From assembly GCA_002781185.1 (NCBI GenBank), contig PEUU01000025.1, forward strand, positions 1 through 46,013: 46,013 nucleotides of DNA, written 5' to 3'. Below, one piece after another: positions 15,242-46,013 of the stretch. The notes below the pieces were generated by a model, which worked only from the letters and a program-made list of their open reading frames with translations, searched no databases and had not been told where the DNA came from. Source of the DNA: Candidatus Jorgensenbacteria bacterium CG03_land_8_20_14_0_80_38_39 (GTDB lineage: Bacteria > Patescibacteriota > Minisyncoccia > UBA6257 > GWB1-50-10). The position numbers were made by a program, and so were the translations under genes. How positions within the stretch are numbered: position 1 is the stretch's first letter; the number at the start of each line of letters is the position of its first letter.

Positions 15242-15245
15242 AATT

Positions 15246-15254: not shown

Positions 15255-15267
15255 CATATTTAAATAA

Positions 15268-15295: not shown

Positions 15296-15332
15296 TGATC
15301 AAAAATGAATCAATAAAGAAGGTGAGTAAGAA

Positions 15333-20067: not shown

Positions 20068-20117
20068 TTAATTATTACTATTATAGCAGAAAGTTCCCTT
20101 ATTTGAAAATAGAATTT

Positions 20118-20126
20118 TTCTCCACA
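20118..20126. promoter_or_regulatory. DnaA-box-like 9-mer upstream of dnaA
   Basis: ttctccaca differs at one position from the consensus TTATCCACA. Confidence 0.4.
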
Positions 20127-20213
20127 GTTAATTAACACTTAACCAACAAAAAAGCTTTTTAAAGGTATTGCCAAGGTTTAAAATGTCTTTATGATTAAGA
20201 TAAATTAAGACCG

Positions 20214-20243
20214 TTGAATTATTCAACACCCTCAAATTATAAT
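20214..20243 (+). promoter_or_regulatory. Candidate dnaA promoter
   Basis: TTGAAT (20214..20219), an 18-nt spacer, then TATAAT (20238..20243), about 30 nt upstream of the dnaA ATG. Confidence 0.35.
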
Positions 20244-20274
20244 TAAACTAAATAAAATTAAAACTTTTTAAGCT

Positions 20275-21663: not shown

Positions 21664-21820
21664 CCCGTGGATAACTTGAAGATTATTTTAAAAAAATTTA
21701 ATTTGTTTTATCTTTATCAACAACTTATTAAATACTTATTTTCTTTAAAAAGGATAAAAAAACATTTATCAATCTGCTTAAAAAATTATTAACCATTTTA
21801 TTCACAGTTCTACAACAACA
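21664..21820. promoter_or_regulatory. Candidate oriC segment in the dnaA-dnaN spacer
   Basis: Three 9-mers each one mismatch from TTATCCACA: cgtggataa (21666..21674, reverse orientation), ttatcaaca (21714..21722) and ttattcaca (21798..21806). Very AT-rich tracts lie between them (gattattttaaaaaaatttaatttg). Confidence 0.5.
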
Positions 21821-22924
21821 ATGAAATTAATAATATTAAAAAATAATTTATTGGAAGGACTAACAACTTTGGAAAAAGCTGTGGGAAACAATACAAATTT
21901 ACCAATTCTTAGAAATTTTTTAATTCAAACAGAAGGTAATAAAATAACTCTTATTTCTACTGACCTTGAAATAGCGGTTAAATATTTTCTTTCGGGAAAA
22001 ATAATTGAAAATGGAAAATTAACCGTCCCTTTTTTTATTGTCAATACCATTGCCAAAAATTTAACCAGCGAAAGAGTTGATTTAGAAACAAAAGAAAAAA
22101 AATTACTTATTAAAACCGACAATTATGAAGCCACTATTCAAGGTCAAGACCCGGAAGAATTTCCTATAATTCCCAAAATTAGCAATCAAGATAAATTCTT
22201 TAAATTTAAACTGGCGACTTTTAAAGAAAATTTAGCTAAAGTTTTAGCCGCCAGCCAATATTCTAATATTCGGCAAGAAATTAATGGCGTATTTTTTAAG
22301 TATGAAGAAAAAACCTTAAAATTAGCCGCGACTGACAGTTTTCGTTTGGCTGAAAAAACATACAATCAAGACCAACTTGAAAGTAATTTTGAGAAAATAA
22401 GTTTTATTCTTCCCTTGAAAACTGCTTATGAAATTTTAAGAATTCCCGACGGTCAAGAAATAATTGTTTTTATTGATGCCAATCAAGTCCTTTTTAAAAC
22501 AGAAAATCAGGAAATTATTTCTCGTTTAATTGACGGTCATTTTCCTGATTATCAATCAGTTATTCCTAAAGAATTTAAAACGGAATTAAGAATCAACCGT
22601 GAAGAGTTAATTAAGGCAATAAAACTAACAAGCGTTTTTTCCGGCGGAACCAATGATATTTCTTTAAAAATCAGTGATAATAAAAAGTTTTTAGAAATTT
22701 ATTCCAATAGCGACCAGTTAGGTGAAAATCGTTATTTAATCCCGGTGAAATTAAAAGGCGAACCATTTTCTTTGGTTCTTAATTGGCGTTATTTTATTGA
22801 TGGTTTAAAAATTTATCAAACCGAAGAAATAGATTTGGGTATTAATGAAGCCGACCGCCCTTTACTTATCAAATCTTCTAACGATTCTTCTTTGTTTTAT
22901 ATTTTAATGCCCTTGAAAAGTTAA
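21821..22924 (+). CDS. dnaN: DNA polymerase III beta sliding clamp
   Basis: 367 aa immediately after dnaA. Typical clamp N-terminus (MKLIILKNNLLEGL) and C-terminus (...LMPLKS). Confidence 0.95.
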   Translation: MKLIILKNNLLEGLTTLEKAVGNNTNLPILRNFLIQTEGNKITLISTDLEIAVKYFLSGKIIENGKLTVPFFIVNTIAKNLTSERVDLETKEKKLLIKTDNYEATIQGQDPEEFPIIPKISNQDKFFKFKLATFKENLAKVLAASQYSNIRQEINGVFFKYEEKTLKLAATDSFRLAEKTYNQDQLESNFEKISFILPLKTAYEILRIPDGQEIIVFIDANQVLFKTENQEIISRLIDGHFPDYQSVIPKEFKTELRINREELIKAIKLTSVFSGGTNDISLKISDNKKFLEIYSNSDQLGENRYLIPVKLKGEPFSLVLNWRYFIDGLKIYQTEEIDLGINEADRPLLIKSSNDSSLFYILMPLKS

Positions 22925-22934
22925 GAAAATAAAT

Positions 22935-25337
22935 TTATTTAGAAAAAACTATCATTGAAGTTTTTATAACCTCATTTGTTTGGTCGCTGACAATGAGTTC
23001 AATTAAGATTTGGGATGGGAAAGCGGAAGAGCCGATTTGGTAGGAAAAATGAAAGGAATTACCCTTTAGCGGTTTGGAAGTTAAAAGTTGATGATTCCAG
23101 TAAAGTTCCAGATTTTTTAAAGGATAAGGGCTGTGAATATCCGCCTTGATATTTAACGGTGAAGAAATAAAATCGCCATTTTTTGGCAGGACATTGGAGA
23201 TGCTTAATTGGTCGGGCATTTTTGGGCCAACGGCAGCGGCTGGCTGGGGTTTTGTTTGAAAAAGACGGGGAAAATTTTCTTGAGCCCAAGCCAAAACCCC
23301 TTTTTCCCAATTTGAAAATTGGGGGTCGTTTTCAGGATTTAAAGGGAAATCTCCCAAAGGGTCATTTTTATTGACAAAATATAAAATGGAATGAATTTGG
23401 GAAATGGTTTTGCCGTCAGAAGCGGTTTTATAAATAAATTGACCATTGAGCATTGGTTTGTCAGGAAGTGGCCAGGGATCGGGTTTTTCAAATAATTCCG
23501 GCTGGTAATTTTTTAAGGCTTCTTGCCAAAAAGCGCTCCAAATTGGGACGGCGGCCAAGATGCTACCGCCTTTGCGAACCATTGGTGAGTTATCATTGTT
23601 GCCAGCCCAAACCCCGACGGTTAAAAAAGGAGTGTAACCAAAAGCCCAAGCATCGTGATAATCATTGCTCGTGCCGGTTTTTAGAGCCACGTCGTAATCC
23701 GGGAAAAAGGTTAAGTTTAAGCTGTTTTGGTATAAGGGCGCCCGCAGGTCCTTGTCGGAAAGAATTTGGTTAATTAATTTGATGGGTTGAGGGTCAAAGA
23801 CTTTGGCGGCTTGGTCCTTATAGCTTTCCAAAATCTTTCCTTGGTTGTCCTCAACCTTAAGAATCAGGGCTTGTTCGTGTTTAATACCTTCTTGGCTCAA
23901 AACACTGTAGGCCTTAACCAAGTCAATTAATTTTATCGCTCCTCCTCCTAAAACCAATGATAAACCGTATTGATTTTTGCCTTCGGAAAGGGTGCTGATG
24001 CCAAAGTGATGGAGGGTTTTAATGACGTCGTCAACGCCGACGAGGTAAAGAACCTTGACTCCCAGGACATTGATTGATTGGGCCAGGGCTTCTTGAAAAG
24101 AAATTGGTCCTCGGAATTTGTCGTCAAAATTCAGCGGCGCGTAGCTGTGAACCGGATCGCCGGTAGTATCAAATTCAGTTTGGACGTCAAAAATTTGGGT
24201 TTGCGGCGGATAACCTTTTTGAAAAGCCAAAAGATAAACAAAAGGCTTTAAAGCTGAACCGGGTTGACGTAGGCCCTGAGTGGCGACATTGAAATTTCCT
24301 TCATTTTTTATGTCAAAATAATCTTTGGACCCGACTAAAGTCAAAATTTGACCGGTCTTTGAGTCTTCGGCCACTAAAGCCGCGTTCCCCCCCTGATAAA
24401 GTTCGGCGTTTCTTTCTGCTCCTTCCTTCACCACTCTTTCGGCAATTTGTTGGAGATTCCAATCTAAGGTGGTGATGACTTTCAAACCACCGCGCTCCAC
24501 TAAATCTTCGCCGTAGCGGTTAATCAGATAATCCTTGACCGTTAAAACAAAATGAGGAGCTTTTATTAAGCCAGCGGAGGGTGGAAAAATTTTCGCTTTT
24601 TCCACTTTCGCTTGGTCAGCGGTTTTTTGGTCAATACTTTTTAAACTAACCAAACGATCAAGAATATAATTTTTCCTTTCTTCCAATTCTTTTAAATGAT
24701 TGCCCCAAGGCGAATAATAACTTGGAGCCTTTGGTAAACTGGCTAAAATAGCGGCTTCAGTCAAAGTTAAATCCTTGGCTGATTTATGAAAATAATTTTG
24801 GGCAGCCGATTCAATGCCGTAAATATTGGAACCGTAAGGAATTTGGTTAAGGTAAAATTCCAAAATTTGATCCTTAGAATAAAGGGACTCTAAACGAATG
24901 GCCAAAATTAATTCTTTAATTTTGCGAGTGAGGGTTTTTTCCGGGCTTAAAAAAACATTTTTGGCTAATTGTTGAGTGATGGTTGAGCCGCCTTGGGTGA
25001 TTCGGCCTTCTTTCAAATTCGTCCAAAGAGCTCTTAGAATTGCTTTCCAATCAAAAGCCGGCTCATTATAAAATTCAGCATTTTCGGCCGCTAGAGTTGT
25101 GATGACGACATTTTTAGGAATTTCGGAAAAATTAATAACCGTTCTTTTTTCTTGGCCGTGGATTTCGTAAAGAAGAATTTTGCCGGTTCGGTCGTAAATT
25201 TTTGTTGATTGACTCAAAAGATAATTGCCGAATTCGTTGGGCGAAGGCAGGTTTTTGACAATTGAAGAAAGGTAAATAACGACCAAGGCGGTCAGTCCGA
25301 GTATTAAAATAAAAACAAGTCCGAGAGTTTTTTTCAT
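22935..25337 (-). CDS. Class A penicillin-binding protein (PBP1A-type transglycosylase/transpeptidase)
   Basis: GT51 motifs (EDxxFYxH-like AENAEFYNEP, GGSTITQQL, RKIKE). Transpeptidase motifs SALKP, a KTG triad (LKTGTSND) and a signal-anchor. The start is taken at ATG 25337 (MKKTLGLVF). Confidence 0.9.
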   Translation of the reverse strand: MKKTLGLVFILILGLTALVVIYLSSIVKNLPSPNEFGNYLLSQSTKIYDRTGKILLYEIHGQEKRTVINFSEIPKNVVITTLAAENAEFYNEPAFDWKAILRALWTNLKEGRITQGGSTITQQLAKNVFLSPEKTLTRKIKELILAIRLESLYSKDQILEFYLNQIPYGSNIYGIESAAQNYFHKSAKDLTLTEAAILASLPKAPSYYSPWGNHLKELEERKNYILDRLVSLKSIDQKTADQAKVEKAKIFPPSAGLIKAPHFVLTVKDYLINRYGEDLVERGGLKVITTLDWNLQQIAERVVKEGAERNAELYQGGNAALVAEDSKTGQILTLVGSKDYFDIKNEGNFNVATQGLRQPGSALKPFVYLLAFQKGYPPQTQIFDVQTEFDTTGDPVHSYAPLNFDDKFRGPISFQEALAQSINVLGVKVLYLVGVDDVIKTLHHFGISTLSEGKNQYGLSLVLGGGAIKLIDLVKAYSVLSQEGIKHEQALILKVEDNQGKILESYKDQAAKVFDPQPIKLINQILSDKDLRAPLYQNSLNLTFFPDYDVALKTGTSNDYHDAWAFGYTPFLTVGVWAGNNDNSPMVRKGGSILAAVPIWSAFWQEALKNYQPELFEKPDPWPLPDKPMLNGQFIYKTASDGKTISQIHSILYFVNKNDPLGDFPLNPENDPQFSNWEKGVLAWAQENFPRLFQTKPQPAAAVGPKMPDQLSISNVLPKNGDFISSPLNIKADIHSPYPLKNLELYWNHQLLTSKPLKGNSFHFSYQIGSSAFPSQILIELIVSDQTNEVIKTSMIVFSK

Positions 25338-32174: not shown

Positions 32175-33842
32175 TTATGACCATTCAAGGGGACCGGTTA
32201 ATCTTTCTACCTCAGCCAAAGAAGTTATGCCCTGCAGCGCTTTTAGCAAGCTGTCTTCCTGCATTGTTACCATTTCTTGTTTTTTGGCGGCGGCTTTTAA
32301 ATCAATTTCTGTTGGGTTTTGGTAAATTAACTCTTCCATTTTTTGGTTAATGACAAAAAGTTCAAAAATGGAAGTTCGGCCTTTATAACCAAAGCCGCCG
32401 CATTGGTCGCAGCCCCGAGGTTCATAAATTTTAAAATTTTCTAGAGGTTTTTTATCAACGCGGCTGGGCAAATTTTTAATAAAGTTTTTAATTTTTTCGT
32501 TTAGAGATTGGTCAATCCTTTTTTCAACTTTGCAGACCGGGCAAAGGAGCCGAATTAATCTTTGGGCAATAACCAAACTTAAGGCCGGACCCAAAATTTG
32601 ACTTTTAACGCCTAAATCTATTAAACGCGGAATCGCGCCGACAGCATCGTTGGTATGAAGAGTGGAAAAAACCGTGTGGCCGGTTAAAGAAGCGTTCATG
32701 GCAATTTCCGCTGTTTCTTTGTCTCTGATTTCGCCCACCAAAACCACATCCGGGTCTTGGCGCAAAATTGACCTGAGACCGCTGGCAAAAGTATAGCCGG
32801 CGCCCGGGTCAACTTGGGTTTGAGAAATTCCAGACAAATGATATTCTACCGGGTCTTCAATGGTGATAATTTTGATTTCCGGTTTGAAAATAAACTTTAA
32901 AAAAGCGTAAAGAGTGGTTGTTTTGCCCGAACCGGTCGGCCCGGTATTTAAAATTAAACCATTGGGTTTTTTAATTTCTTTTTTGACAATTTCCAAATCG
33001 TCGGTCCGCCAGCCCAATTCTTCCAAATTAACTTTTAAAGATTCTGGGTCCAGAATTCTTAAAACCACTGTTTCGCCCCATTCCGAGGGAATAACCGAAG
33101 CTCTGATTTCAATTTCCCGACTAGTTGTTTTGATGGTAAAACGTCCGTCTTGAGGTTGGTCGTGAATGTTAAGTTTTAAATTGGAAAGAAGCTTAAGGCG
33201 AGAAATAAGGGACTGGTAAGTTTTTAGAGGAAGTTTTTCATAAGCCGAATGAAGCAAGCCGTCAATTCTTAACCGCAGGAGGCCTTTTTCTTCAGTTGGC
33301 TCTAGATGAATATCCGAGGCTTTCAAAGATAAAGAGCCGGCTAAAATAATTTCTAAAATTTGGGAAGTTAATTTGCTTTTGGATTCGTCAATCGTTTGGT
33401 TTAGAGCCGTTAAAGTTTTAATATTTTCCTGAAAGGTTTTGAGTCTTTGAGGTTCAATATCAACTTGACCGCTAATTTCTTTCCCCTCTTCAACCGCGTA
33501 TTGGTAATAATTCCAAACCGCTTTGAGACCGGAAAGGGAAGTAATAAAAATATGGAGATTATATTTTTGTTTTAAGCGAATAATTAGTTTTTGGGTTTCA
33601 GTATTTTGAGGATCAAAAGCCGCCAAAACTAAATCGTTTTTGATTGCTTGAAGCCCGGCGGCTAAACTTTTTTTAGCTTCTTCTTCGGGAATAAGGGTTA
33701 GGGCTTTAATTTCAATCGGCGTTTTGCCGCCGACCGGGTTTAAATAAGGCAAATGGAGTTTAGCTGCTCGGCGTTGGGCGTCTTGCTCTTCAGCTTTGCG
33801 CCGCTGTTTTGTTAGTTCTTCTCCTAAGTTAAAATCAGCCAT
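32175..33842 (-). CDS. GspE/PilB-family secretion ATPase (type II secretion/type IV pilus assembly)
   Basis: 555 aa. Walker A GPTGSGKTTTL, Asp box, Walker B VVLVGEIRD, His box, and a tetracysteine motif CPVC...CDQC typical of PilB/GspE. Confidence 0.85.
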   Translation of the reverse strand: MADFNLGEELTKQRRKAEEQDAQRRAAKLHLPYLNPVGGKTPIEIKALTLIPEEEAKKSLAAGLQAIKNDLVLAAFDPQNTETQKLIIRLKQKYNLHIFITSLSGLKAVWNYYQYAVEEGKEISGQVDIEPQRLKTFQENIKTLTALNQTIDESKSKLTSQILEIILAGSLSLKASDIHLEPTEEKGLLRLRIDGLLHSAYEKLPLKTYQSLISRLKLLSNLKLNIHDQPQDGRFTIKTTSREIEIRASVIPSEWGETVVLRILDPESLKVNLEELGWRTDDLEIVKKEIKKPNGLILNTGPTGSGKTTTLYAFLKFIFKPEIKIITIEDPVEYHLSGISQTQVDPGAGYTFASGLRSILRQDPDVVLVGEIRDKETAEIAMNASLTGHTVFSTLHTNDAVGAIPRLIDLGVKSQILGPALSLVIAQRLIRLLCPVCKVEKRIDQSLNEKIKNFIKNLPSRVDKKPLENFKIYEPRGCDQCGGFGYKGRTSIFELFVINQKMEELIYQNPTEIDLKAAAKKQEMVTMQEDSLLKALQGITSLAEVERLTGPLEWS

Positions 33843-34102: not shown

Positions 34103-35053
34103 ATGAAAGCGCTTTTTGGTTGTTTGCTTGTCTTGGTTTTGTTCAGCAGTGGTTGTTACACTGTAACAATCCCAAGTGAAGGTGAAACTTATGAATCTTA
34201 TGATTCAACAGTTTTACAAGTTTCACAATCTGCAATCCAGTTAGGGTTTTGGTGTTGCCCAAGTTACTGGAGTTACCAGTACCCTTACTATGGCTATGCT
34301 CGGGGGTATTGGTGGAACGGCTGGCCAGGGGGTTCATATCCTCTGTATAGAGGATATGGATACGCTAATGGCTGGCTCTGGCATAATGGTTGGCCAGTGG
34401 CTTGGAGTGGCTACGGTTACGGCTACGGTTACGGCTACGGATATCCTTATGCCTATGGATCTGTCCTGAGCGGAGCGAATGGATGGGGCGATTGGGATAA
34501 CCAGAACTGGTTTGACCAAAGTCGCTGGCGAACAAGAAATTTCGGCGCCACTCGCGGTAGCGGCTTAAGAGGAACTGATCGTGCTAGCGCAGGAAGCGGC
34601 AGTTCTTTTACTGGAGAGCGAGCTTCTCGCCCGGGTTCAACTCGGAGCGGTTTTTCTAGCCCAAGTTGGGGTAGGACTAGAGAGCGAGCACGAGCAGTTG
34701 AAGTGGCTAAGTCATCGCGACCTTCAAGGACAGAAACTACTAGAACTTCGCCTCATAGAGGTCGTAACGGCACGGTGCGTCAGCAGCCCGGTGCTCAGTC
34801 ACAGAAACCAGAAATCAGGTCACCTCAGAAGCCGCGGGATGAACGTAATCGCCAGCGGGATTACCGGAATTATTCTCCGAGTCATTCCTCCGGTGACAGT
34901 CGTTCAACTAGCGGCCATCCAGCTTATTCTCCGCCGAGCTATCCCCGTTCTTCAAGCGGGCGCCCAAGTTATTCACCGACACCGAGGAGTAATTCGGGTC
35001 GGAGCGCTCTCTCAACACCAAGAGGAAGTTTGGGCTTTACTCGCCGGCGATAA
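34103..35053 (+). CDS. Low-complexity putative lipoprotein: W/Y/G-rich N-half, R/S/P-rich C-half
   Basis: Signal peptide with a lipobox-like sequence, MKALFGCLLVLVLFSSGC. The (GY)n run GYGYGYGYGYGYPYAYG is encoded by ggctacggttac repeats (34408..34443). The C-half contains SR/RS/YSP motifs. Visibly GC-richer than its flanks, with a strong promoter, SD and terminator. Confidence 0.6.
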   Translation: MKALFGCLLVLVLFSSGCYTVTIPSEGETYESYDSTVLQVSQSAIQLGFWCCPSYWSYQYPYYGYARGYWWNGWPGGSYPLYRGYGYANGWLWHNGWPVAWSGYGYGYGYGYGYPYAYGSVLSGANGWGDWDNQNWFDQSRWRTRNFGATRGSGLRGTDRASAGSGSSFTGERASRPGSTRSGFSSPSWGRTRERARAVEVAKSSRPSRTETTRTSPHRGRNGTVRQQPGAQSQKPEIRSPQKPRDERNRQRDYRNYSPSHSSGDSRSTSGHPAYSPPSYPRSSSGRPSYSPTPRSNSGRSALSTPRGSLGFTRRR

Positions 35054-36632: not shown

Positions 36633-37019
36633 ATGGTTGATAGAAAAAATCTAAAGCGAGAATTTAAGCTCAGAATTTATCGCTATGTGATACGACTTTT
36701 AAAATTTTTAGTTAAATTACCAAATGAGCCGGTAACCCGCGAAATTAAAAGTCAACTGACCAGAAGCGGCACATCAATTGGCGCAAATTATTTTGAAGCC
36801 GAAGGAGCCAGTTCTAAAAAAGACTACTAGAATTATTTCGCCATCGCCTTAAAATCAACTAATGAATCAAAATTTTGGTTGGCTGTTTTGAAAGATAGCA
36901 ATTTACTACCAGAAGAATTAAAATCAGAATCTGAACATCTTTTAAAAGAAACGGGTGAAATTGCTAACATTTTTGCCTCAAGTATTTTAACTATGAAAGG
37001 TAAAAGAAAAATTTTTTAA
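36633..37019 (+). pseudogene. Four-helix-bundle protein (23S rRNA IVS-protein family) interrupted by an in-frame TAG
   Basis: The first part, ...LTRSGTSIGANYFEAEGASSKKDY, stops at TAG 36828..36830. The same frame continues NYFAIALKSTNESKFWLAVLKD...GEIANIFASSILTMKGKRKIF to TAA 37017..37019. Both halves together match the family pattern and the ~125-aa length. Confidence 0.7.
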
Positions 37020-37026
37020 GTTTTTA

Positions 37027-37066
37027 GTTTATGTTTTTAGTTTTTGGTTTTTGGTTTTTCATTTTT
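37027..37066. repeat. Right arm of the inverted repeat bracketing the four-helix-bundle gene
   Basis: gtttatgtttttagtttttggtttttggtttttcattttt; see the left arm at 36573..36614. Confidence 0.5.
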
Positions 37067-38188
37067 CTAGTATCCGCCTAAAGGAAATTCGTAAAGATAA
37101 TTGTCGTAGCGATTGATAAAGTAAAGGACGCCGTCCGGCGTAATTCTTGCGTTTGTTGCGTCAATAGCCGGAATGTTTTCTTGGCTGCTCATAAAAATTT
37201 GATTCATATCGCCACTTTCTAAATCATTGACAAATAAAGCGTCCAAAGAATAAGTTTTGCGAGAAAAATAATCATCAGGCAAAGTTGAATCCGGCAGAGT
37301 TAAGGATGAAGGGACAAAACAATAAATCGTGTTTAAATAACTGTCGCATTTTTGAGGAAAAGTCGGCGGCAAAGAAAATTGCTTTTGGTTATTAATGGCG
37401 AAAAACCGGTAAGGCAGACTGTATTTGAATAAATATTGATTGTCCTGGCTATGATAGAGCATTAAACCCAATTCCGGACCATAAAGGGTTTGAAAAGATA
37501 AGGTTTTCAAATCAAGTTTCCAAACTTTGCCGCGGTAAGAAGCCGAGGGCTTTTCCATAATTAAAAGTTGGTCGGGCGCTTGCCATTTTAAATCAATGTC
37601 TTTGAAGCGGAAGTCGCTAATAATAATTTTTATTTTCGGCGGCGAGCTTTGAAGGTCAATATTGGCAAGGCTGATATTTTGTTGATTTTTTACGAGACCA
37701 ATAAGATTATGGTCTGAATCTGCCCAAGTAGCTTCTAATAAATCCGCAGGCAGAGGCCGCCAAGTCCGGTCATTAATATCAAAAATTCCCCATTGGGGTT
37801 GGCGAGGGTCGCCAAAAGCCATTAAAATTTCTTGAGCGCTAGGCGAGGGAATAATGGAATTAATGGCGGAAAAAGTTTGGGAAGAATAAAGAATGTCTTC
37901 TCCGGCTTTGGCATTATAAACTTCTCCTTTGGGGGTTAAATAAAAAATTTCTTCGGTTTCAGGAGAAAGCCAATAATTAAAAATTGGCCGGTCAGAAATT
38001 TTTTGAGGAGCCGGTTTATTTGCCTCTGTTGGCTGAATTGAACCTGGAGTTTGGATTGAAGGAGGCGAAATTATTTTTTTAGGCGTGGAAATTTGTCCCC
38101 AGAGCCAATAAACAGTTACAGCCAGAACCACTATTATCGCCAAAATAATTAAAATTTTATATAAAGGTTTCATAATTAGTTGGTGCAA
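37067..38188 (-). CDS. Signal-anchored extracytoplasmic protein; last gene of the T4SS-like operon
   Basis: 373 aa. One N-terminal TM helix (ILIILAIIVVLAVTVYWLW), then a beta-rich domain with a propeller-like feel. The start overlaps the upstream gene by 13 nt. Confidence 0.5.
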   Translation of the reverse strand: MHQLIMKPLYKILIILAIIVVLAVTVYWLWGQISTPKKIISPPSIQTPGSIQPTEANKPAPQKISDRPIFNYWLSPETEEIFYLTPKGEVYNAKAGEDILYSSQTFSAINSIIPSPSAQEILMAFGDPRQPQWGIFDINDRTWRPLPADLLEATWADSDHNLIGLVKNQQNISLANIDLQSSPPKIKIIISDFRFKDIDLKWQAPDQLLIMEKPSASYRGKVWKLDLKTLSFQTLYGPELGLMLYHSQDNQYLFKYSLPYRFFAINNQKQFSLPPTFPQKCDSYLNTIYCFVPSSLTLPDSTLPDDYFSRKTYSLDALFVNDLESGDMNQIFMSSQENIPAIDATNARITPDGVLYFINRYDNYLYEFPLGGY

Positions 38189-38874
38189 ATTTTTAAATCA
38201 TCATCATAAAGTTTCTCAGTCTTGTCAGTAATCTTTTCTGGCAAGTCAATTTGTTTGAAAAGATAACATAAAATAGTAAAATTGCCTTTGGTTAGAGAAA
38301 AAGGAATAAAATGAGGGCCGGTGTCAGGAGTAGAAACGGAGCCAGTTCCGTAAAACAAGTAATAAAAGTATTTAGTGCCTTTGTGGTCAGTCCAGTTTAT
38401 TTTTTTGCACTTAGCGAGTGTTTCTTGAAAATCTTTATAATCATCGCCGCAGATAGCCCTAGAAGTGGTAGTAGCAATAGGCTGTGTTGAGGTGACCCCG
38501 CTGATTTGCAAAGTCACCAACTGGGGATTAATTGTTGTTAAGATTAAATAAGCGCCAAAAAGAAGAAGCAAGCCCCAAAGAGCTGAATAGATTCTGCCCA
38601 AAGCGTCTCTTTTTTTATCCGGCGAAGCGGCAGACATAACCGCGTATTGGACAGCGCCGAAAACAATCATTACCAAAGCCAGCATTCCGACAATGCCCAA
38701 GCCGAAATTGTAAAGGCCCTGAATATAAGTGAAAAGATAATTAGGGTTTTGCTTGAGAATTTCAGGAGTGACGTCGGGGAATGTAGATGTAGCCGCTTGA
38801 GCTTGGTTTTTTATAGCCAAAAATGTCCCCCAAAGAAAAAAATTAATAATTAAAAATATAACAATTTTTTTCAT
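38176..38874 (-). CDS. VirB2/TrbC-like T4SS pilin candidate with a Cys-containing C-terminal extension
   Basis: Signal peptide ending AQA|AT. Two hydrophobic helices separated by a short polar loop (GIVGMLALVMIVFGAVQYAVMSAASPDKKRDALGRIYSALWGLLLLFGAYLILTTINPQL), which is the VirB2/T4SS-pilin topology. About 100 extra C-terminal residues with 4 Cys. Confidence 0.5.
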   Translation of the reverse strand: MKKIVIFLIINFFLWGTFLAIKNQAQAATSTFPDVTPEILKQNPNYLFTYIQGLYNFGLGIVGMLALVMIVFGAVQYAVMSAASPDKKRDALGRIYSALWGLLLLFGAYLILTTINPQLVTLQISGVTSTQPIATTTSRAICGDDYKDFQETLAKCKKINWTDHKGTKYFYYLFYGTGSVSTPDTGPHFIPFSLTKGNFTILCYLFKQIDLPEKITDKTEKLYDDDLKICTN

Positions 38875-39563
38875 TGACTCAGATAAAAAGTTAAACTTGT
38901 TTCCTGAGGCGGAATTAAAGGACTGGTTTTGTTTTCCACCCCGGCGCCGATTCTAAAGCTATTATCAGTATTAGCCCAATCTTTGCTTACAGTTAAAATC
39001 ACCGGATTTTGGTTGTTTAATTCTTTTTGAAAATGAAGATTAATTTTCCAGAAGAAATTAAAATCCTGAAAATTGTTAGCATTGAAAAAATAAGGAACAG
39101 AACGAAGAACTATTTGTTCCCCTTCTTTAAAAGTTTTGATTGGCGAAGGGTAATCAATAATTACTTGAGGTTCAGCAATATTAACGCTGACGCTGTTGCC
39201 GTAATTGTTTTGTTCCAGTTGAATCTCCGTTCTCACTAAATAAGGGCCGAGCCAGTTTACCGGGACATTAATTAAAATTTCTTTTAAGCCAATTCCCCGA
39301 TTAAAATATTTATTGTTAACATACCAAAGAAAGTCCGCCTTGCTGATGTCAATAATTTTATTATCTTTTATTAATTCGGCGCTTACTAAAATTGGAGTCA
39401 TCGGCGTGGCTAGGGCTTTTAAGGGGTAATCAGCGGGGAAATAATTATTGGCTTGCCAGGTTAAAATGACTTGAGTTGAAGGTTCGGAAGTTTGGGCTTT
39501 GGCTTGAACCAACAATCCCAGAGAAATAATGATTATGATAAAAGTTAAAATTTTCTTTTTCAT
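38871..39563 (-). CDS. Secreted hypothetical protein in the T4SS-like operon
   Basis: 230 aa. Signal peptide MKKKILTFIIIIISLGLLVQAKA. 4-nt overlaps on both sides. Confidence 0.5.
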   Translation of the reverse strand: MKKKILTFIIIIISLGLLVQAKAQTSEPSTQVILTWQANNYFPADYPLKALATPMTPILVSAELIKDNKIIDISKADFLWYVNNKYFNRGIGLKEILINVPVNWLGPYLVRTEIQLEQNNYGNSVSVNIAEPQVIIDYPSPIKTFKEGEQIVLRSVPYFFNANNFQDFNFFWKINLHFQKELNNQNPVILTVSKDWANTDNSFRIGAGVENKTSPLIPPQETSLTFYLSQ

Positions 39564-41335
39564 TTTTGTTGTTCTTCCATGCCTTGTTCTTCTAAACCTT
39601 TGGCGGCTAAAATTTGTTCGGGATTAGTGGTAATAATCTGGTCCTCGGTATAAGAAGGAATGATTTTGATGGCCGCTCTTTTTAAACCGGCAAAAAATAA
39701 ACCTTCGCCAATGCCAGCTTCCAGAAGAAGAGCTTTTTCACCTTCGGTTAAATCAAAAGTTTTAGCCACAATATCAATATTGGCCGGCGCTTGCTTAAGC
39801 AATAATTGAATGGTGGAATTGGTGATAATCGGTCGGCCGTATTCGGAAGTTAAGAAATCGTTGACGTCTTGGGTAATGGTTGTTACCCCCAAATAATATT
39901 TTCGGCAGCGTTTAACCAGACCAAAGAGGAAAGCGGCGCTGTCTTTATATTTCATCATCCACCAAGCTTCATCAATTATCAAAATCCGGCGTTTTAGTTT
40001 TGAGCGAATGAGATTCCAAATGAAGTTTAAAATAACATACATTGCAATCGGTCTGAGTTCGCTTTCCAAATCCCGAATGGAAAAAACTATCAAGCGATTT
40101 TTAATGTCAACATTGGTTGGTTGATTGGTAAAACCGGCATAAGAGCCGTGAGTGAATTTATCCAAGCGTTGGGCTAAGGAACGGCCGCCCTCGGTATTTT
40201 GAAGAACAGTTTGAAAATCTTCAAAAAGCGGCGGTTGAAGTTCGGTTGAGCCGAAATTTTCCGGCGTGATATCGCGGGAAGCATAAACGTCGTTAAGAGC
40301 CCGGTCTAAAAGCGCATCTTCTTCGGGCGTGATTTCTCCAAGCATTAATTCAATTAAGCCGGTTAAGTTTAAAATGTGGGATTTAAAAACATCGGCCGGC
40401 TCTTCATTTTCGGGAATAATGGGAATGTCAAAGGGATTAACGTGTTTTTCCGAAGTGAGGGAAATTTTAAACACTGAACCGCCAACCGCGTCCGCCAAAG
40501 TTTGATATTCATTTTCCGGGTCAATAACAATAACATCGGTTCCAATCATCATTGAACGGATAATTTCTAATTTGGTGGCATAAGATTTACCGCTGCCGGC
40601 CTTGGCGAAAACAACCGAGTTCGCGTTCTCCAAAGAAAAGCGGTCAAAAATAATCAAACTGTTATTATGAAGATTTAAACCGTAAAGAACTCCTTTGTCC
40701 GAACTTAATTCCGGCGAAACAAAGGGAAATAATGATGAAGCTGGCAAAGTATTAAGGGGAGTGTAAATGCCTAATTTGTCTTGACCAAAAGGGAAAACTG
40801 AATTTAAACCTTCAATTTGGCGGAAAAGAGCCGCTTTAAGATAAACCAATTTACTTTCCAACCGAGAAGTTAAGGTGTTTTCTAATTTTGATAATTCTTC
40901 TAAAGTGGTGCCGTAAATAGTGATATAAACTCCGACCTCAAACATTTTTTCTCGGGCTTGCTGAAGCGCGTCTCTAAGATTTTCTATGTCTTCGTGGGCG
41001 GTTTCCAGAAGCGGGTCGCGCACCATTCCTTTTTCTCCTTTTTCTCCCATTTCCGCTTCAATTTCCGCCACTCGTTTTCTTAAGCTTTTAAGGGCTAAAG
41101 CCACATCCAAAGGATGCATAAAAATACTAATATCCATCATTTCGGTCAGCTCAATAATTGAAGAAAACCAGCCGCTTGAAAGGTAGCGGGGATAAGTGAA
41201 GATAAAAAAGGATTTAGCGAAATAATCGCCCAATTTCAAATAGTTGGATTCTATTTTTAAACCGGCCGGCGCTATTACTTGAACCGTGTCAGCCGCCGAA
41301 GGCTTATAAGCTTGAGGCAATTTTATTTTAACCAT
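39560..41335 (-). CDS. VirB4/TraC-like T4SS ATPase (C-terminal part of a split VirB4)
   Basis: 591 aa. Walker A FAKAGSGKSYATK, Walker B RILIIDEAWWMM. The upstream segment LKLGDYFAKSFFIFTYPRYLSSGW is typical of the VirB4 middle region. Confidence 0.8.
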   Translation of the reverse strand: MVKIKLPQAYKPSAADTVQVIAPAGLKIESNYLKLGDYFAKSFFIFTYPRYLSSGWFSSIIELTEMMDISIFMHPLDVALALKSLRKRVAEIEAEMGEKGEKGMVRDPLLETAHEDIENLRDALQQAREKMFEVGVYITIYGTTLEELSKLENTLTSRLESKLVYLKAALFRQIEGLNSVFPFGQDKLGIYTPLNTLPASSLFPFVSPELSSDKGVLYGLNLHNNSLIIFDRFSLENANSVVFAKAGSGKSYATKLEIIRSMMIGTDVIVIDPENEYQTLADAVGGSVFKISLTSEKHVNPFDIPIIPENEEPADVFKSHILNLTGLIELMLGEITPEEDALLDRALNDVYASRDITPENFGSTELQPPLFEDFQTVLQNTEGGRSLAQRLDKFTHGSYAGFTNQPTNVDIKNRLIVFSIRDLESELRPIAMYVILNFIWNLIRSKLKRRILIIDEAWWMMKYKDSAAFLFGLVKRCRKYYLGVTTITQDVNDFLTSEYGRPIITNSTIQLLLKQAPANIDIVAKTFDLTEGEKALLLEAGIGEGLFFAGLKRAAIKIIPSYTEDQIITTNPEQILAAKGLEEQGMEEQQK

Positions 41336-41347
41336 TATTTTTTTTGT

Positions 41348-42031
41348 TTATTCTTTGTTTTTTTCAGACCTTTCAGGCAGGGATATTTTTCTTTCGGTTA
41401 ATTGGGGATTATATAAATTATAAAATAATTCGATTAATTCTTCATCGTTTAAAATAGCGGCTTTTAATCCTATTTGGTTCAAGGCGCTTAAAACCTGGTC
41501 GGTTCTTTCGCTTAATTGCTGAAGAGACTGAGAAGAAGTCAATTCAGTGTTCGGTTGGGAAGTTTTTTTCTTTTTAATAAATTGGAAAAGACCGGAGAGT
41601 CCCCCGCCGCCGAAACCGCCAGCTGCTTGAATATTTATGGGACTGGCATCATAAGTGACAACAACGAAGAATTTTTTGGTAATAATGGCGTTTTGTTCCA
41701 CAAAAGTTCTAATAAAATTAACGTACTCGTCAAGCTGGATTTTTAAAAGTTCGTTAGGTTCTTTTTCTTTAAACTCGGCCATCTTTTGAAGATAGTTTTC
41801 AATGTTAATTTTCCGGGAATGAATGAAAAATTGAATTGGAAAATCAAGCATGTTCAAAAAATTTTGGAAACCGCTGGTTATTAGATTTTGCTCGGTTTCG
41901 GATTTTAAATCAAAGTTGATTCCGCTCGTAATTAAAATTTGGCGCAAACCGCCGCCTTTTAAATAAACAACGCTGTCGCGGATTTCTTTAACTTCTACAA
42001 ATTGTTGAGTTGAAGGTTGAGAGCTATTCAT
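41348..42031 (-). CDS. VirB4 N-terminal-domain-like protein (first part of a split VirB4)
   Basis: 227 aa. FVEVKEIRDSVVYLKGGGLRQILITSGINFDLKSETEQNLITSGFQNFLNMLDFPIQFFIHS resembles the N-terminal region of Gram-positive VirB4 homologues (from memory of the family pattern). The stop lies 12 nt before the ATPase ATG. Confidence 0.5.
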   Translation of the reverse strand: MNSSQPSTQQFVEVKEIRDSVVYLKGGGLRQILITSGINFDLKSETEQNLITSGFQNFLNMLDFPIQFFIHSRKINIENYLQKMAEFKEKEPNELLKIQLDEYVNFIRTFVEQNAIITKKFFVVVTYDASPINIQAAGGFGGGGLSGLFQFIKKKKTSQPNTELTSSQSLQQLSERTDQVLSALNQIGLKAAILNDEELIELFYNLYNPQLTERKISLPERSEKNKE

Positions 42032-42117
42032 TGATTATATTTTGAGAGTGTTGATAAGACTTCGGCTGACATGCTCGGGATGAAACTATTGAATAGTTAT
42101 TCAATAGTTTTACTTTA

Positions 42118-42597
42118 TCAATAATTGACTTTTTTGACAATTTTCTTTTCGCCGGTTTTTTCCCGAATTAAACCGTAGCGAGATGGCGTTTTTTGAACCG
42201 GAGGATGTTTCGGGGCGGTCATAATTCTTTGAGCCGCGGCTTTTAGTTTTTCTTGAAAACTCAATTGTTTCCGGTTTTTTTCTAAAAAGTCTTCGGGGAT
42301 TTCTAAGGTGGTTTGAGGAATTTCTCTTCCCCAAAGATAAATTTTCGGCCGCCAAAAATACTTAATGGCCGAGATTAAAATAAGAGGAAAACTTTGGCCG
42401 TTAATTTTTAAAAAAGCAAAAGCCAAAGCCAGAACTCCGACAATTAAAGTGATAATGAACCAAACAAAAAAATTAAAAATAGAAAAAGCCAAGAAGCTGA
42501 TGCCGGCGGCCGCGCCGATGTAAAAAAATTGGACCAAAGTTAAAGGGCCGACGATTTTCGGTTTGGTTTCAATAAATTGAGGAACTTGGAATTCCAT
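42118..42597 (-). CDS. PrgI-family (VirB3-like) small membrane protein
   Basis: 159 aa. N-terminus FQVPQFIETKPKIVGPLTLVQFFYIG followed by two TM helices, matching the PrgI-family signature and its position upstream of VirB4. Confidence 0.55.
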   Translation of the reverse strand: MEFQVPQFIETKPKIVGPLTLVQFFYIGAAAGISFLAFSIFNFFVWFIITLIVGVLALAFAFLKINGQSFPLILISAIKYFWRPKIYLWGREIPQTTLEIPEDFLEKNRKQLSFQEKLKAAAQRIMTAPKHPPVQKTPSRYGLIREKTGEKKIVKKVNY

Positions 42598-42600
42598 TTT

Positions 42601-43719
42601 TTAGCGTAGGTCAATAATGTTGCCCTCTACTTTGACCTGATTTTGGGAGTCTTTGGAGTTTTTAGAAGAAGGTTTTGGGTTTAAGGTTGGAAAAACCGGC
42701 GGGCTTTCGGTTTTTGGAGCTTCGGTTTTTGGAACTTCGGGTTTTGGAACCGCGGGTTTTGTTTCGGCTAGTTTTTCTAAAGGAATTTTAAAAGCTTCCA
42801 AAACAGGTTCTTTTTCAAGAATTGGTTTTGGAGAAACAATAACATCTTCTTTTTTTTCAAAAGGTTTTTCAAAAGGTTTTTCAAAAGGGTTGAGAGGGGT
42901 TCTAAATTCGCTGTAATGAACTATTCTTTTTGGCGGCGTTTCAATTTTTGATTTAAGGGTCTCAAGTTTGGTTAAAATTGTTTCCGGGGAACTTACTTCC
43001 GCTTTGACGGTCTCAGACAACGGTTTGGGGAAGACCTTTTTAAATAATTGAAAAGGCAGAGAGAAAGTTTTAAGAAAAGGCTTGGATTTTTTCTCAATGG
43101 GTTTGGCAACCTGTTCCAGAGGTCGCTCTTGTTGGAGAATAAAAGGCGCGGGTTTGGTTTTTAACCTTTCAGTCAAGGGAACTACTGGTATTGTTACCGG
43201 TTTAACCAAAGGTTTTTCCGCTTTGGAAATTTTGACTTCCGCGGCCGGTTTTTCTTCAGCGCTTACTTTAATTTGTTTTAAGGGTAGAGTTTCTTCTTTT
43301 TTCTCAATAATTTCTTCCAGAGAAATCGTTTCTTCCTTAGGGAGAATCCCAAATTGTTTTTCAAATTCTTCATCTTCTTTTTGAATTTCTTCCAAAGTTT
43401 TAGCGTCCGAGACATCAAATTCATTTAAATTAATTCCCCAGCTTTCCAAATCATGGCGCTTTGGCTCCAAGATTTTTTCTTTAATTTCTCGGCTAATGGC
43501 TTTGGCGCGAAATTGACTCGCCGGAATTTCTTTGGCTAGAGCGGAAATAAAATCTTTGATTAATAATTCTTTTGTTTCCAGTTGAAACAGCAATTCGGGA
43601 ATGGCGTCAATATTATAAAATCCGCTTCTTTTATTAATGTCAGCGATAAAAGCAATTACCCGGGGAGAACTGAAATATTCACGGATTCTTTCGGGAATAT
43701 TTTGAATATCAATAGCCAT
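42601..43719 (-). CDS. P/E/K-rich repeat protein with a structured N-terminal domain
   Basis: 372 aa with no TM. The tandem FEKPFEKPFEK is encoded by 3 x 12 nt (42854..42889). PKPEVPKTEAPKTE is encoded by ~15-nt repeats (about 42706..42765). Confidence 0.5.
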   Translation of the reverse strand: MAIDIQNIPERIREYFSSPRVIAFIADINKRSGFYNIDAIPELLFQLETKELLIKDFISALAKEIPASQFRAKAISREIKEKILEPKRHDLESWGINLNEFDVSDAKTLEEIQKEDEEFEKQFGILPKEETISLEEIIEKKEETLPLKQIKVSAEEKPAAEVKISKAEKPLVKPVTIPVVPLTERLKTKPAPFILQQERPLEQVAKPIEKKSKPFLKTFSLPFQLFKKVFPKPLSETVKAEVSSPETILTKLETLKSKIETPPKRIVHYSEFRTPLNPFEKPFEKPFEKKEDVIVSPKPILEKEPVLEAFKIPLEKLAETKPAVPKPEVPKTEAPKTESPPVFPTLNPKPSSKNSKDSQNQVKVEGNIIDLR

Positions 43720-43724
43720 TTTAA

Positions 43725-45740
43725 TTAAGGAGTGTAAGAAATAGTGTTTCGCCAGTGCGGCCTTTGGGAAGCGGATTCATAATTAGACCAGGCCCTATTT
43801 TTATCCGGCTCGGATTTTATGGCGTCCAGCTTGGACTTTAAGCTTTTGTCAGTAGTTTGTTTTTGCTTAATAAGATTTGCGAGCTTCGCTTGAGCGGCTT
43901 GCTTGGCTGCGCCAGCGGGAGCTGCTTGGGCTAATGAGTTTTGGTCGGCGATATCTTGTTTTAATGTGTCTATAGTTTTTTGGTATTTTTTAATGTCCTC
44001 AATTTCCATAAATCCTTTGTTTAGATCATTATCGCCCAGGGTTGTAATCCAGGCAGCAGCAACAGCATCTTTCTTTTCTTTAGGAGCAAAATCTAATTGG
44101 CTAATATGATTTAGGGAAAGATTATTAGCGATTTCCGGCTTTCCCAAACTTTCCTTGTTGAGGTCAGAAACATCTGGAACCCTTTTCATTACTTGTCCAA
44201 TGTCTTTATTGAAAGCTTGGGCATATTGCGGCTGATGTTTTAAGAACTCGTCGCCGCTGTTGGTTTGTTTTAAGGCCTTCAGGATTCTGTCTTGTGTTGA
44301 TTTCTTCAATTTGTCCCAGGCGCCTTTTTTCTCTGCTATAGCCAAACCCAAGCCGCTTAATTCTTGAGGTCTAGCTGTTGGCATTTGGCGATCAGCAGTC
44401 GCCACCAAATCTTCGGAAGTTCGGGACTTGGCTTTTTTGTATTCCTCTTCCGTTCCTTTGGCGAGTTTTTCTTTAGCTCGGCTAGAAACGCCGGAAATAC
44501 CAGTGAAAGCCCGACCAACAACAGGAATTGTTCTTAATTCCTTGCCAAATATTTTTTTGCCTCCGGCTCTTTCTAGAGCAGTTTTACCTTCTTCATCAGT
44601 TCTGGCGGTTAAAAGCCTGTCGCGACCACTGGCTGCTTTTCTGCCGGCCCAGGCCTTGGTCTTACTGCCCATTGCTTTACCTTGGGTTCCCGCCCATTTA
44701 ACAGTCGTGTCGGCAAAACCTATGCCCATACTTTGAGCCGCGATTAAACCTCCGACTAAAATTGCCAAAATTAAAAACATTTGAGCGCCTTGAGTAAAAA
44801 TAGTTTCCAAAGGTCCGGCAAGGCCCAAATACATATCTGATTGTATAATCGTAATGGGATGGTCTTTTAAAACTTGAGCGCTTCTGACAGCTAAATAAAC
44901 GAAAAAAGAGGCCGCCGGCGCAAAAAATACCCATTTGATAAAACTATTCCACCATTTTTTTGTTTGTTCGCTCCATTGGGGCACAATCCAAAAAAGCCAG
45001 GTAATAGGCGAAATAACTAAAAGAAAAGAAAGCTCAAAAAATCTAATGAAAAACAAAATAGCCAGAATAAAAAGAACTATTGCTCCGACGACAGTAAAAA
45101 GAAAAGTAAATAATATGCTGGCGATGCCAATGAAAAAAGCCTCACCAACATTTTCAAAATCAGGCGGCGGTGATGGCGTCGTCGGGTTAGTTGAAGCCAT
45201 TAAAAGTTTTTGAATATCAAAAGCTCCGGCTAAAGTGACGGCTAAATTTTTGGGGCTGATACTGGCGGCGTTGAGGAAAAATTGGGTGAAGACATTGGCA
45301 AAATCAATAAAAACTTTGCCAATAAGCAAGCTGAAATTAACCAAAACCGCGGCGACAATTAATTTTGACAAAAGGTCTTTGGCTCCGTATTTTTGAATTC
45401 TTAAAATTGTGGCAAAAGCAATAATAATAATGACTAAAACAAAACCTAAGTTCGCAATATCCCTAACAATGCCCCAGCCAATGCTTACCACGGGATTAGC
45501 CGAACTGACAATGTGGAGATTTATATCAAAGGCTATATTGACAAACATACTAGCCAAACTAAAAAGCAGTCCGCCTATCCAGCCAATGACAGAATTAACA
45601 ACGGTAAAGAAAAGGTTTAAAGCATTGAATAAAATTTTTGTTTCACCAAACAGTGCTCCTGCTGGCAGAGGAATAGCAACAAAAATAAAAATTAAAAAAA
45701 CAGCGGCAAGCCAAAAGTTTTTAAAAAAATTCTTTTTCAT
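43725..45740 (-). CDS. VirB6/TrbL-like polytopic membrane protein with a long hydrophilic C-terminal domain
   Basis: A signal/TM segment plus about 6-7 TM helices over the first ~340 aa, then ~330 hydrophilic residues. First gene of the operon. The start is taken at ATG 45740 (MKKNFFKNFW), not the track's TTG at 45764. Confidence 0.45.
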   Translation of the reverse strand: MKKNFFKNFWLAAVFLIFIFVAIPLPAGALFGETKILFNALNLFFTVVNSVIGWIGGLLFSLASMFVNIAFDINLHIVSSANPVVSIGWGIVRDIANLGFVLVIIIIAFATILRIQKYGAKDLLSKLIVAAVLVNFSLLIGKVFIDFANVFTQFFLNAASISPKNLAVTLAGAFDIQKLLMASTNPTTPSPPPDFENVGEAFFIGIASILFTFLFTVVGAIVLFILAILFFIRFFELSFLLVISPITWLFWIVPQWSEQTKKWWNSFIKWVFFAPAASFFVYLAVRSAQVLKDHPITIIQSDMYLGLAGPLETIFTQGAQMFLILAILVGGLIAAQSMGIGFADTTVKWAGTQGKAMGSKTKAWAGRKAASGRDRLLTARTDEEGKTALERAGGKKIFGKELRTIPVVGRAFTGISGVSSRAKEKLAKGTEEEYKKAKSRTSEDLVATADRQMPTARPQELSGLGLAIAEKKGAWDKLKKSTQDRILKALKQTNSGDEFLKHQPQYAQAFNKDIGQVMKRVPDVSDLNKESLGKPEIANNLSLNHISQLDFAPKEKKDAVAAAWITTLGDNDLNKGFMEIEDIKKYQKTIDTLKQDIADQNSLAQAAPAGAAKQAAQAKLANLIKQKQTTDKSLKSKLDAIKSEPDKNRAWSNYESASQRPHWRNTISYTP

Positions 45741-45804
45741 AATTTGGCAGTTAAATCTTGGCAATTTCGTAACAAGAAAATCTCGCCTTTTAAAAGTTTA
45801 ATTT

Positions 45805-46013
45805 TTAGGGAGGACATTTTGGCAATTGACTTATAGTTTTGTTAATTTGGTCTAGCAAATCTTGAGAAGTACTTTTAAAAGAAACCGAGTTGTTATAATG
45901 CTGCTCTATGGCGGAGGAAAGGATGACTAAATCTCTCGCGTTAGTGATGGTATTTAATTTATTTCGGTCGTCAGTGAGATTTGTTTGAGTTAAAGCCAGA
46001 CTGGCAAAAACTT
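45805..46013 (-). CDS. Partial CDS (C-terminal fragment, continues beyond the window)
   Basis: The minus-strand frame is open from the window edge to TAA (45805..45807): ...LTQTNLTDDRNKLNTITNARDLVILSSAIEQHYNNSVSFKSTSQDLLDQINKTISQLPKCPP. Function unknown. Confidence 0.4.
   Translation of the reverse strand, partial: VFASLALTQTNLTDDRNKLNTITNARDLVILSSAIEQHYNNSVSFKSTSQDLLDQINKTISQLPKCPP

Follow-up and report, generated by a model that had tools for sequence, protein, structure and literature searches.

A survey of 3,035 Patescibacteria genomes found VirB4, the ATPase of type IV secretion systems (T4SSs), in 2,417 of them, and almost all of these proteins belonged to one clade within MPF_FATA (Quinonero-Coronel et al. 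2025, PMC12102498). In these genomes TrsD, which was counted as a separate protein, PrgI/VirB3, VirB6 and VirB2-like pilins adjoin virB4; relaxases are almost absent, and homologues of the type IV coupling protein (T4CP) are rarely linked to virB4. The T4SS loci of Paceibacteria and Microgenomatia lie near dnaA, dnaN and ksgA, those of the class ABY1 beside comF, recG and radA. Patescibacteria probably have no outer membrane, and the authors of the survey concluded that their T4SS was co-opted for a non-conjugative role (PMC12102498). Here we analyse a T4SS cassette in a stretch of 46,013 nucleotides (nt) of Candidatus Jorgensenbacteria bacterium CG03_land_8_20_14_0_80_38_39 (contig PEUU01000025.1; hereafter the window), in which eight of its genes occupy positions 37067-45764 of the minus strand. 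The locus is an ordinary member of the system already described in 2023-2025. Very probably it represents, in the form found in Paceibacteria, the chromosomal T4SS of the Patescibacteria clade, a machine for the transfer of macromolecules at host contact and not for conjugation.

The homologous cluster of Southlakia epibionticum (SEML1_0005-0019) was essential for epibiotic growth by transposon sequencing (Tn-seq; Wang et al. 2023, PMC10633639), and it comprises pilins but no recognisable coupling or relaxase proteins (PMC10633639). Deletion of comEC in the same organism abolished competence and left viability unaffected (FEMS review 2025, PMC12857230). In addition, a 2026 preprint describes tubular structures that may be T4SS pili where a parasite, a cultivated strain of Minisyncoccota (Patescibacteria), meets its host. 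No T4SS outside this class has been reported as essential for its carrier organism, and no other monoderm T4SS seems to build a VirB2 pilus. The class is a prime candidate for the means by which the ultra-small bacteria belonging to the candidate phyla radiation (CPR) exploit their hosts, as published between 2023 and 2025. To this picture we add a ten-gene definition of the Paceibacteria cassette between ksgA and jag-yidC, a fold for one 'grey' gene (a beta-propeller) and the placement of a second 'grey' gene, encoding 230 amino acids (aa), in a family of 2,686 representatives.

A conserved ten-gene cassette between ksgA and jag-yidC

All coordinates refer to the window unless stated otherwise. 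The DNA of this organism that could be searched was the 51.6-kb parent contig (ENA ERZ27293391 k141_878560; locus label L081). An earlier note, made from the letters of the window, had described eight co-directional minus-strand genes at 37067-45764, and the listing of open reading frames (ORFs) places eight same-direction ORFs exactly there. They encode, starting from the VirB6 end, a VirB6/TrbL-like polytopic membrane protein (43725-45764), a K/E/P-rich cytoplasmic protein (42601-43719), a PrgI family (VirB3-like) protein (42118-42597), a TrsD-like protein that corresponds to the N-domain of VirB4 (41348-42031), the VirB4 ATPase (39560-41335), an exported protein of an unnamed family (38871-39563), a VirB2-like T4SS pilin (38176-38874) and a membrane-anchored beta-propeller (37067-38188). 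Most junctions are tight: three are gaps (5, 3 and 12 nt), two are overlaps of 4 nt, and one can be read as a 13-nt overlap or as a 2-nt gap. The compact packing described in the earlier note holds for these 3-12-nt gaps and 4-13-nt overlaps, but not for the single wide junction, 86 nt between the genes for PrgI and for the TrsD-like protein.

Two further features of that description had to be revised. The operon is not bounded at 45764: the 3' end of a ninth gene, encoding 569 aa, lies at 45805-46013 on the minus strand, where the last ~68 codons are cut off by the window edge, and a tenth gene (268 aa) precedes it. Both are conserved, co-directional with the rest and located before VirB6 on the parent contig, where the 569-aa gene spans L081 4036-5745, overlaps the preceding 268-aa gene by 4 nt and has ksgA further upstream. 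Since the window ends at L081 position 5537, the cassette runs on past its edge, and what had been taken for a minimal VirB2/3/4/6 set is a conserved set of ten genes that the window cuts. All ten are intact. Promoter and terminator scans returned no more sites than in shuffled sequence and were left unused. An imperfect (TTTTTAG)n tandem repeat of ~6.7 copies (37014-37066) lies directly 3' of the stop codon that ends the propeller gene, the last of the cassette.

We compared the cassette with 80 related loci, which were obtained by fetching VirB4 relatives and searched by BLAST and jackhmmer against six-frame ORFs; many of these loci end at contig ends. The recurring order is ksgA, the 268-aa gene, the 569-aa gene, VirB6, the K/E/P-rich gene, PrgI, TrsD, VirB4, the 230-aa gene, pilin and propeller, followed by the convergent jag-yidC. 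Matches were most frequent for VirB4 (80 of 80 loci), the TrsD-like protein (76), PrgI (73) and the pilin (65), followed by VirB6 (61), the K/E/P-rich protein (58), the 230-aa protein (54), the propeller (50), the 569-aa protein (~40-42) and the 268-aa protein (38). Since this ten-gene order recurs in dozens of species-level genomes of Paceibacteria, the arrangement is not due to chance.

The top 80 VirB4 relatives all come from Patescibacteria (53-80% identity), mostly from Paceibacteria, with representatives among Jorgensen-, Wolfe-, Lipton-, Harrison-, Azam-, Nealson-, Portnoy- and Spechtbacteria. The host is a CPR bacterium, as the earlier note had suspected. Outside the CPR, the best VirB4 matches are plasmid-borne proteins of the CD1110 type from Firmicutes and Actinobacteria, with 28-34% identity. 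These similarities are consistent with a position of the VirB4 in the Patescibacteria clade nested in MPF_FATA. With the described T4SSs of that clade the locus shares an MPF_FATA-related VirB4, a separate TrsD-like ORF, PrgI/VirB3, a VirB6-like protein and a VirB2-like pilin near virB4; it is likewise chromosomal, near dnaA and ksgA, and has no relaxase or coupling protein nearby.

The core order is also shared with S. epibionticum, whose cluster runs from VirB6 through a protein X, PrgI, 0009 (the TrsD homologue according to PMC12102498) and VirB4 to exported proteins. In contrast to the single pilin gene found here, this exemplar from the Saccharimonadia has a six-gene pilin array. It further encodes lysozyme/peptidase (VirB1-like) and NTF2-like (VirB8-like) proteins, neither of which was recognised in our locus by sequence-profile searches; the beta-propeller, the 230-aa double-domain protein and the 268-aa and 569-aa proteins stand here instead. 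The proteins of our locus are also much shorter than their S. epibionticum counterparts (VirB6, 679 versus 1088 aa). One member of the S. epibionticum cluster, SEML1_0005, is an essential exported protein with two Ig-like domains. In the supplementary files of Wang et al. 2023 the word 'propeller' occurs 7 times, in one file, and two of the passages refer to DNA gyrase.

A VirB4 motor encoded by three genes

The PrgI family protein (159 aa) has two transmembrane helices at its N-terminus (residues 15-33 and 45-63) and scored above the Pfam cut-off for PF12666 (E 4e-7, 30.9 bits versus 27). The 227-aa protein encoded next to it matched TrsD of NCBIfam and positions 99-234 of the VirB4_plasma model (E 5.9e-8), and its record carries the precomputed Pfam entry PF26593 (TraC-like). 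The VirB4 ATPase (591 aa) is of the CD1110/MPF_FATA type, with 380.6 bits against NCBIfam conju_CD1110 (equivalog cut-off 325), and it matched P-loop_TraG (87 bits) and AAA_10 in Pfam. Its Walker A motif GSGKS is located at residue 247 and its Walker B motif ILIIDEAW at residue 451. The only relative among PDB sequences is 4ag5, a VirB4 component-like protein (E 4.4e-44).

A parallel is provided by the integrative and conjugative element (ICE) of Mycoplasma, in which VirB3 and VirB4 form a single fused ATPase (Mbov_0397). On the 894-residue model of this fusion (NF045975) the three proteins tile in order, covering positions 19-118 (PrgI; a weak match, E 0.005), 99-234 and 296-893. We therefore read them as VirB3, VirB4-N and VirB4-C encoded by three genes. 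The Mycoplasma system differs from ours in that it is conjugative and has these parts in one gene, and all scores of our proteins against its models remain under the equivalog cut-offs. The earlier note had recognised a PrgI/VirB3-like protein, a separate VirB4 N-domain ORF and a VirB4 ATPase with GSGKS and IIDEAW motifs, and the profile scores, the TrsD and TraC-like matches and the fused relatives described below uphold all three.

In the window the TrsD-like ORF and the VirB4 ORF share one frame, with an in-frame TAA and a further 12 nt between them, and five of the 76 related loci with both parts (L028, L031, L053, L059 and L065) have a single uninterrupted ORF of 770-821 aa. Taken by itself, this could indicate a decaying relic whose VirB4 was broken by the stop codon into pieces of 227 and 591 aa. 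The other 71 loci, however, keep the two ORFs apart; every one of the three frame relations occurs among them, as does each of the stop codons TAA, TGA and TAG. Because the split occurs in so many relatives and in every frame relation, the in-frame TAA is a normal gene boundary in an old, maintained architecture and not a lesion. A separate TrsD protein was also reported in the survey (PMC12102498), the ten genes are intact with the Walker motifs kept, and dozens of species share the gene order. The locus is almost certainly no relic. Read-through or a sequencing error at the TAA was rejected as well, given the same distribution among the relatives.

An extended VirB6-like protein and a VirB2-like pilin

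Read from a TTG codon, the first gene of the window part encodes 679 aa; the gene call of the parent contig starts instead at the ATG at 45740, which gives 671 aa. The protein and most of its 304 homologues carry the precomputed Pfam entry PF19590 (TrbL_3). About seven hydrophobic helices are predicted within residues 1-340, followed by a helical extension of ~300 aa that is rich in K, A and E. We modelled residues 1-371 with AlphaFold2 (predicted local distance difference test score, pLDDT, 81.9) and searched the model against PDB with Foldseek. The top seven matches were all TrwI/VirB6 chains of the R388 system (8rtd, 8rt9 and 7o3v; E 7.8e-4 to 5e-2, best probability 1.00, template modelling score 0.34-0.62 on the target), at a sequence identity of 11-14%. 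Together, the TrbL_3 records and the structural match back the VirB6/TrbL-like identity that the earlier note had assigned, and we accept the protein as an extended VirB6 with a K/A/E-rich helical tail of ~300 aa. Pfam and NCBIfam scans of the protein and 32 homologues otherwise gave coiled-coil noise (PF04610 in 1 of the 32, E 0.0019), and the full-length profile retrieved only coiled-coil proteins from PDB sequences, driven by the C-terminal extension.

The pilin (232 aa) is encoded two genes downstream of virB4, and some of the related loci hold 2-4 copies. Over residues 47-114 it scored 31.1 bits against Pfam PF18895 (T4SS_pilin; cut-off 26.6), in agreement with the previous VirB2-like assignment. 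Its predicted topology comprises a signal peptide and hydrophobic helices at residues 57-75 and 97-115. Relatives align over residues ~45-125 only, in stop-to-stop ORFs of ~100 to >500 aa. The remaining C-terminal extension of ~115 aa (residues ~116-232; 38176-38526) contains 4 Cys, is not conserved in relatives and may be a variable, surface-displayed domain.

The R388 Trw and Agrobacterium VirB systems (MPF_T) thus have the VirB6 fold, the topology of the VirB2-type pilin and the partnership of VirB3 with VirB4 in common with our locus. They differ from it by VirB5, VirB7-10 and VirB11, none of which is present here, and by a VirB6 that lacks the long helical C-terminal extension.

Conjugation parts and the neighbouring recombinase

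For the window, the earlier note had listed a relaxase, VirD4, VirB1, VirB8/9/10 and VirB11 as not recognised. None of them was returned either when all its ORFs of at least 100 aa were scanned with Pfam and NCBIfam, and the called genes of the 51.6-kb contig likewise include no relaxase, coupling protein or VirB11. A 555-aa ATPase of the PF00437 family (32175-33842, minus strand) was considered as VirB11 and rejected, for it is of the PilB/GspE type (462 bits for PilB versus 50 for VirB11). It is solitary, between RuvB and a low-complexity ORF, with no adjacent pilus genes, ~3 kb from the cassette.

The conjugation systems of the MPF_FATA/CD1110 type in Firmicutes and Actinobacteria share with our locus a VirB4 above the CD1110 cut-off, 4ag5 as the nearest structure, PrgI, TrsD and a monoderm design without VirB7/9/10. 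By these likenesses the system is a predicted machine of monoderm type, akin to the MPF_FATA conjugation systems in both phyla. It differs from them in that it is not on a mobile element and lacks a relaxase, a T4CP, a VirB1-type hydrolase and a PrgB-type adhesin, while a VirB2-like pilin is present here and none there, and in the low VirB4 identity given above.

A VirB4 of a family typical of Gram-positive conjugative elements raises the question of whether the cluster is part or remnant of an ICE, with an integrase just outside the window and the relaxase and coupling protein lost or elsewhere. An integrase in that place, together with a relaxase and a coupling protein, had been named in the earlier note as what would turn the locus into an ordinary ICE. 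A gene of the first kind does exist: ~3.9 kb upstream of VirB6, at L081:338-1946, we found a large serine recombinase (Resolvase, Recombinase and Zn_ribbon_recom domains) adjoining a tRNA-Ser gene. However, it is frameshifted into ORFs of 187 and 348/369 aa, lies at the contig end and, with its own 3' end, abuts the 3' end of tRNA-Ser(cga) on the side facing away from the T4SS, so that both this tRNA gene and ksgA, a core gene, intervene. None of the 80 related loci contains a homologue of it, whereas the cassette and its flanks (ksgA; jag-yidC) are conserved. The window contains no copy of the tRNA-Ser 3' end, the cassette matches its flanks in G+C content (0.37-0.41) without any compositional break, and relaxase and T4CP are absent from the 51.6 kb. 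The likeness to the case named in the earlier note is superficial, and we consider an ICE very unlikely. The recombinase is an unrelated strain-specific feature outside the cassette, and it is probably where an integrated element peculiar to this strain begins to interrupt the assembly, of which it would be the margin.

Five conserved proteins of unnamed families

What remains of interest in this otherwise described system are five accessory protein families conserved in the Paceibacteria cassette. The last cassette gene (373 aa, or 368 aa from the ATG at 38173), present in last position in 50 of the 80 loci, had been described as a signal-anchored beta-rich protein, which the structure prediction bears out. 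An AlphaFold2 model built from 44 sequences (pLDDT 90.9, predicted template modelling score 0.83) has an N-terminal transmembrane helix, a P-rich linker of ~30 aa and a seven-bladed beta-propeller. Foldseek matches in PDB were generic propellers (eIF3i, tricorn, TolB, WDR5 and DPP-IV; E 1e-10 to 1e-7). A pair of cysteines (C281 and C290) is conserved, and none of the 45 homologues has a Pfam domain.

The 230-aa protein is encoded directly downstream of VirB4 in 54 of the 80 loci. Its N-terminal hydrophobic segment (residues 5-23), followed by AKAQ, represents a signal peptide or an anchor. It had no match in Pfam, NCBIfam or PDB sequences. It consists of two weakly similar, beta-rich halves of ~95 aa each (hhalign probability 79%, E 1.6e-5). 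It was considered as a candidate for the missing VirB8-like component with an NTF2-fold, but the two halves may fit a pair of beta-sandwich domains better. A profile search of 1.84 billion cluster representatives retrieved 2,686 representatives at E<=1e-3, and among the best 150 matches nearly all are 220-250 aa long. Together with the beta-propeller, this protein is a target for structural work on the extracellular part of the machine.

The K/E/P-rich protein (372 aa; K 14%, E 14%, P 11%) has neither a transmembrane segment nor a signal peptide. A conserved N-terminal domain of ~110 aa precedes a low-complexity tail with short repeats, which at the DNA level include tandem repeats of 12 nt x3 (42853-42888) and 15 nt x3.7 (42706-42761). 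Homologues between VirB6 and PrgI were detected by jackhmmer in 58 of the 80 loci, and the N-terminal ~110 residues were covered most often. No Pfam or NCBIfam family was found for it.

Directly upstream of VirB6, the 569-aa protein is predicted to be secreted and has 8 Cys and a helical C-terminal part; GGC/GGT repeats (L081:5221-5337) encode ~31 uninterrupted Gly that join its Cys-containing domain to this helical part. It had no match in Pfam, NCBIfam or PDB sequences, and 25 homologues scanned singly revealed no consistent family. For the membrane-anchored 268-aa protein, too, Pfam and NCBIfam scans gave no consistent family. When profiles of the 230-aa, 373-aa and 569-aa families were compared with PDB sequences, nothing meaningful was obtained.

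Function and proposed mechanism

The earlier note had favoured a role other than conjugation, and we arrive at the same view, which was also reached in PMC12102498 and PMC10633639. The cassette is embedded in housekeeping DNA near dnaA, without a relaxase or coupling protein in 51.6 kb. Since these parts are missing, the locus is conserved vertically near the replication origin (oriC) and the S. epibionticum homologue is essential, exchange with a host is favoured over conjugation. Most likely, the ultra-small cell would use the machine to exchange macromolecules with its host cell, by export of effectors, uptake of host material or both.

The gene content, topology predictions and conservation reported above are our own data, and the mechanistic steps that follow are modelled on the architecture of R388 and Gram-positive T4SSs. 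A two-piece VirB4 motor, with the TrsD-like N-domain supplied in trans to the 591-aa ATPase, would form a hexamer at the cytoplasmic face of the membrane. The two-helix PrgI/VirB3 protein may tether VirB4 there and allow it to dock on the polytopic VirB6-like protein, which would act as the membrane platform or channel. VirB2-like pilin could then be pulled out of the membrane, to polymerise on VirB6 as a pilus or tube. The proteins that are exported or anchored (the 268-aa, 569-aa and 230-aa proteins and the propeller) would provide the parts that cross the wall and contact the host. These four and the cytoplasmic K/E/P-rich protein probably stand in for VirB8, VirB1 and adhesins. A bolder version, in which the five constitute an undescribed envelope-spanning and host-docking module that replaces VirB8, VirB1 and adhesins, the hypervariable C-terminal domain of the pilin sets host specificity and host macromolecules such as RNA or nucleotides are imported, seems to us unlikely.

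A T4SS without relaxase and T4CP in an organism with a reduced genome might alternatively serve the uptake of environmental or host DNA, as in the competence systems ComB of Helicobacter or Ced of archaea, and feed a cell that is unable to make nucleotides. The VirB4 resembles CedB (E 1.8e-11) and CedD (E 1.9e-4) below threshold, and the neighbours comF, recG and radA of the ABY1 loci (PMC12102498) would fit such a role. However, the scores amount to 43 bits for CedB (cut-off 700) and 20 for CedD (cut-off 600), the former far below that for CD1110, and no competence genes flank our cassette. Competence of S. epibionticum requires ComEC and type IV pili, and comEC is dispensable for viability in this organism, whereas the T4SS is essential (PMC10633639, PMC12857230). 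Because the loss of comEC does no harm to viability, an essential DNA-uptake role of the T4SS is argued against (PMC12857230). We regard a competence function as improbable and continue to favour macromolecule exchange with a host.

Several points weigh against this assignment. Function is inferred throughout, and the sequence is silent on the substrate and on the direction of transfer. VirD4-like proteins are encoded elsewhere in most Patescibacteria genomes (PMC12102498), so that a distal coupling protein may be encoded here beyond the 51.6 kb searched. The placement of VirB4 in its clade derives from similarity and synteny and not from a phylogeny. Two family matches stayed under their NCBIfam cut-offs, namely that of the TrsD-like protein to TrsD (E 1.2e-8, 35 bits versus a cut-off of 200) and that of the pilin to the Mbov_0395 pilin-like protein of the Mycoplasma ICE (E 5.9e-6). 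Finally, a direct Pfam hmmscan of the 679-aa protein returned no VirB6/TrbL model, and the VirB6 call draws on the precomputed TrbL_3 entry and a structural match of moderate strength.

Chromosomal setting

Profile scans identified the remainder of the window as chromosomal housekeeping DNA, with infC, rplT, PolX, ClpB, a MurC-like ligase, RuvA, RuvB, RuvC, Fpg, holA, dnaA, dnaN, PBP1, PolA, TsaE, the PilB-type ATPase, yidC and jag. The dnaA-dnaN pair (dnaA, 20275-21663) lies 15.4 kb from the cassette. GC skew flips sign at this pair (window ~19000-23000; cumulative minimum at ~21-23 kb), which fits an oriC there. To the right of it (22935-45764) the minus strand carries nearly all genes, the entire T4SS operon among them, so that they are transcribed head-on to replication.

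Among the housekeeping genes, an RtcB RNA ligase is paired with an archease (13663-15749, minus strand). A 316-aa ORF on the plus strand (34103-35053), for which no Pfam or NCBIfam family was found, has a lipoprotein-like N-terminus (…LFSSGC) followed by extreme low-complexity sequence, Y/G/W-rich in the first half and S/R/P-rich in the second. The spacer that separates jag from the last T4SS gene holds a 65-aa ORF (36633-36830, plus strand), which weakly matches the four-helix-bundle protein of 23S rRNA intervening sequences and is apparently truncated.

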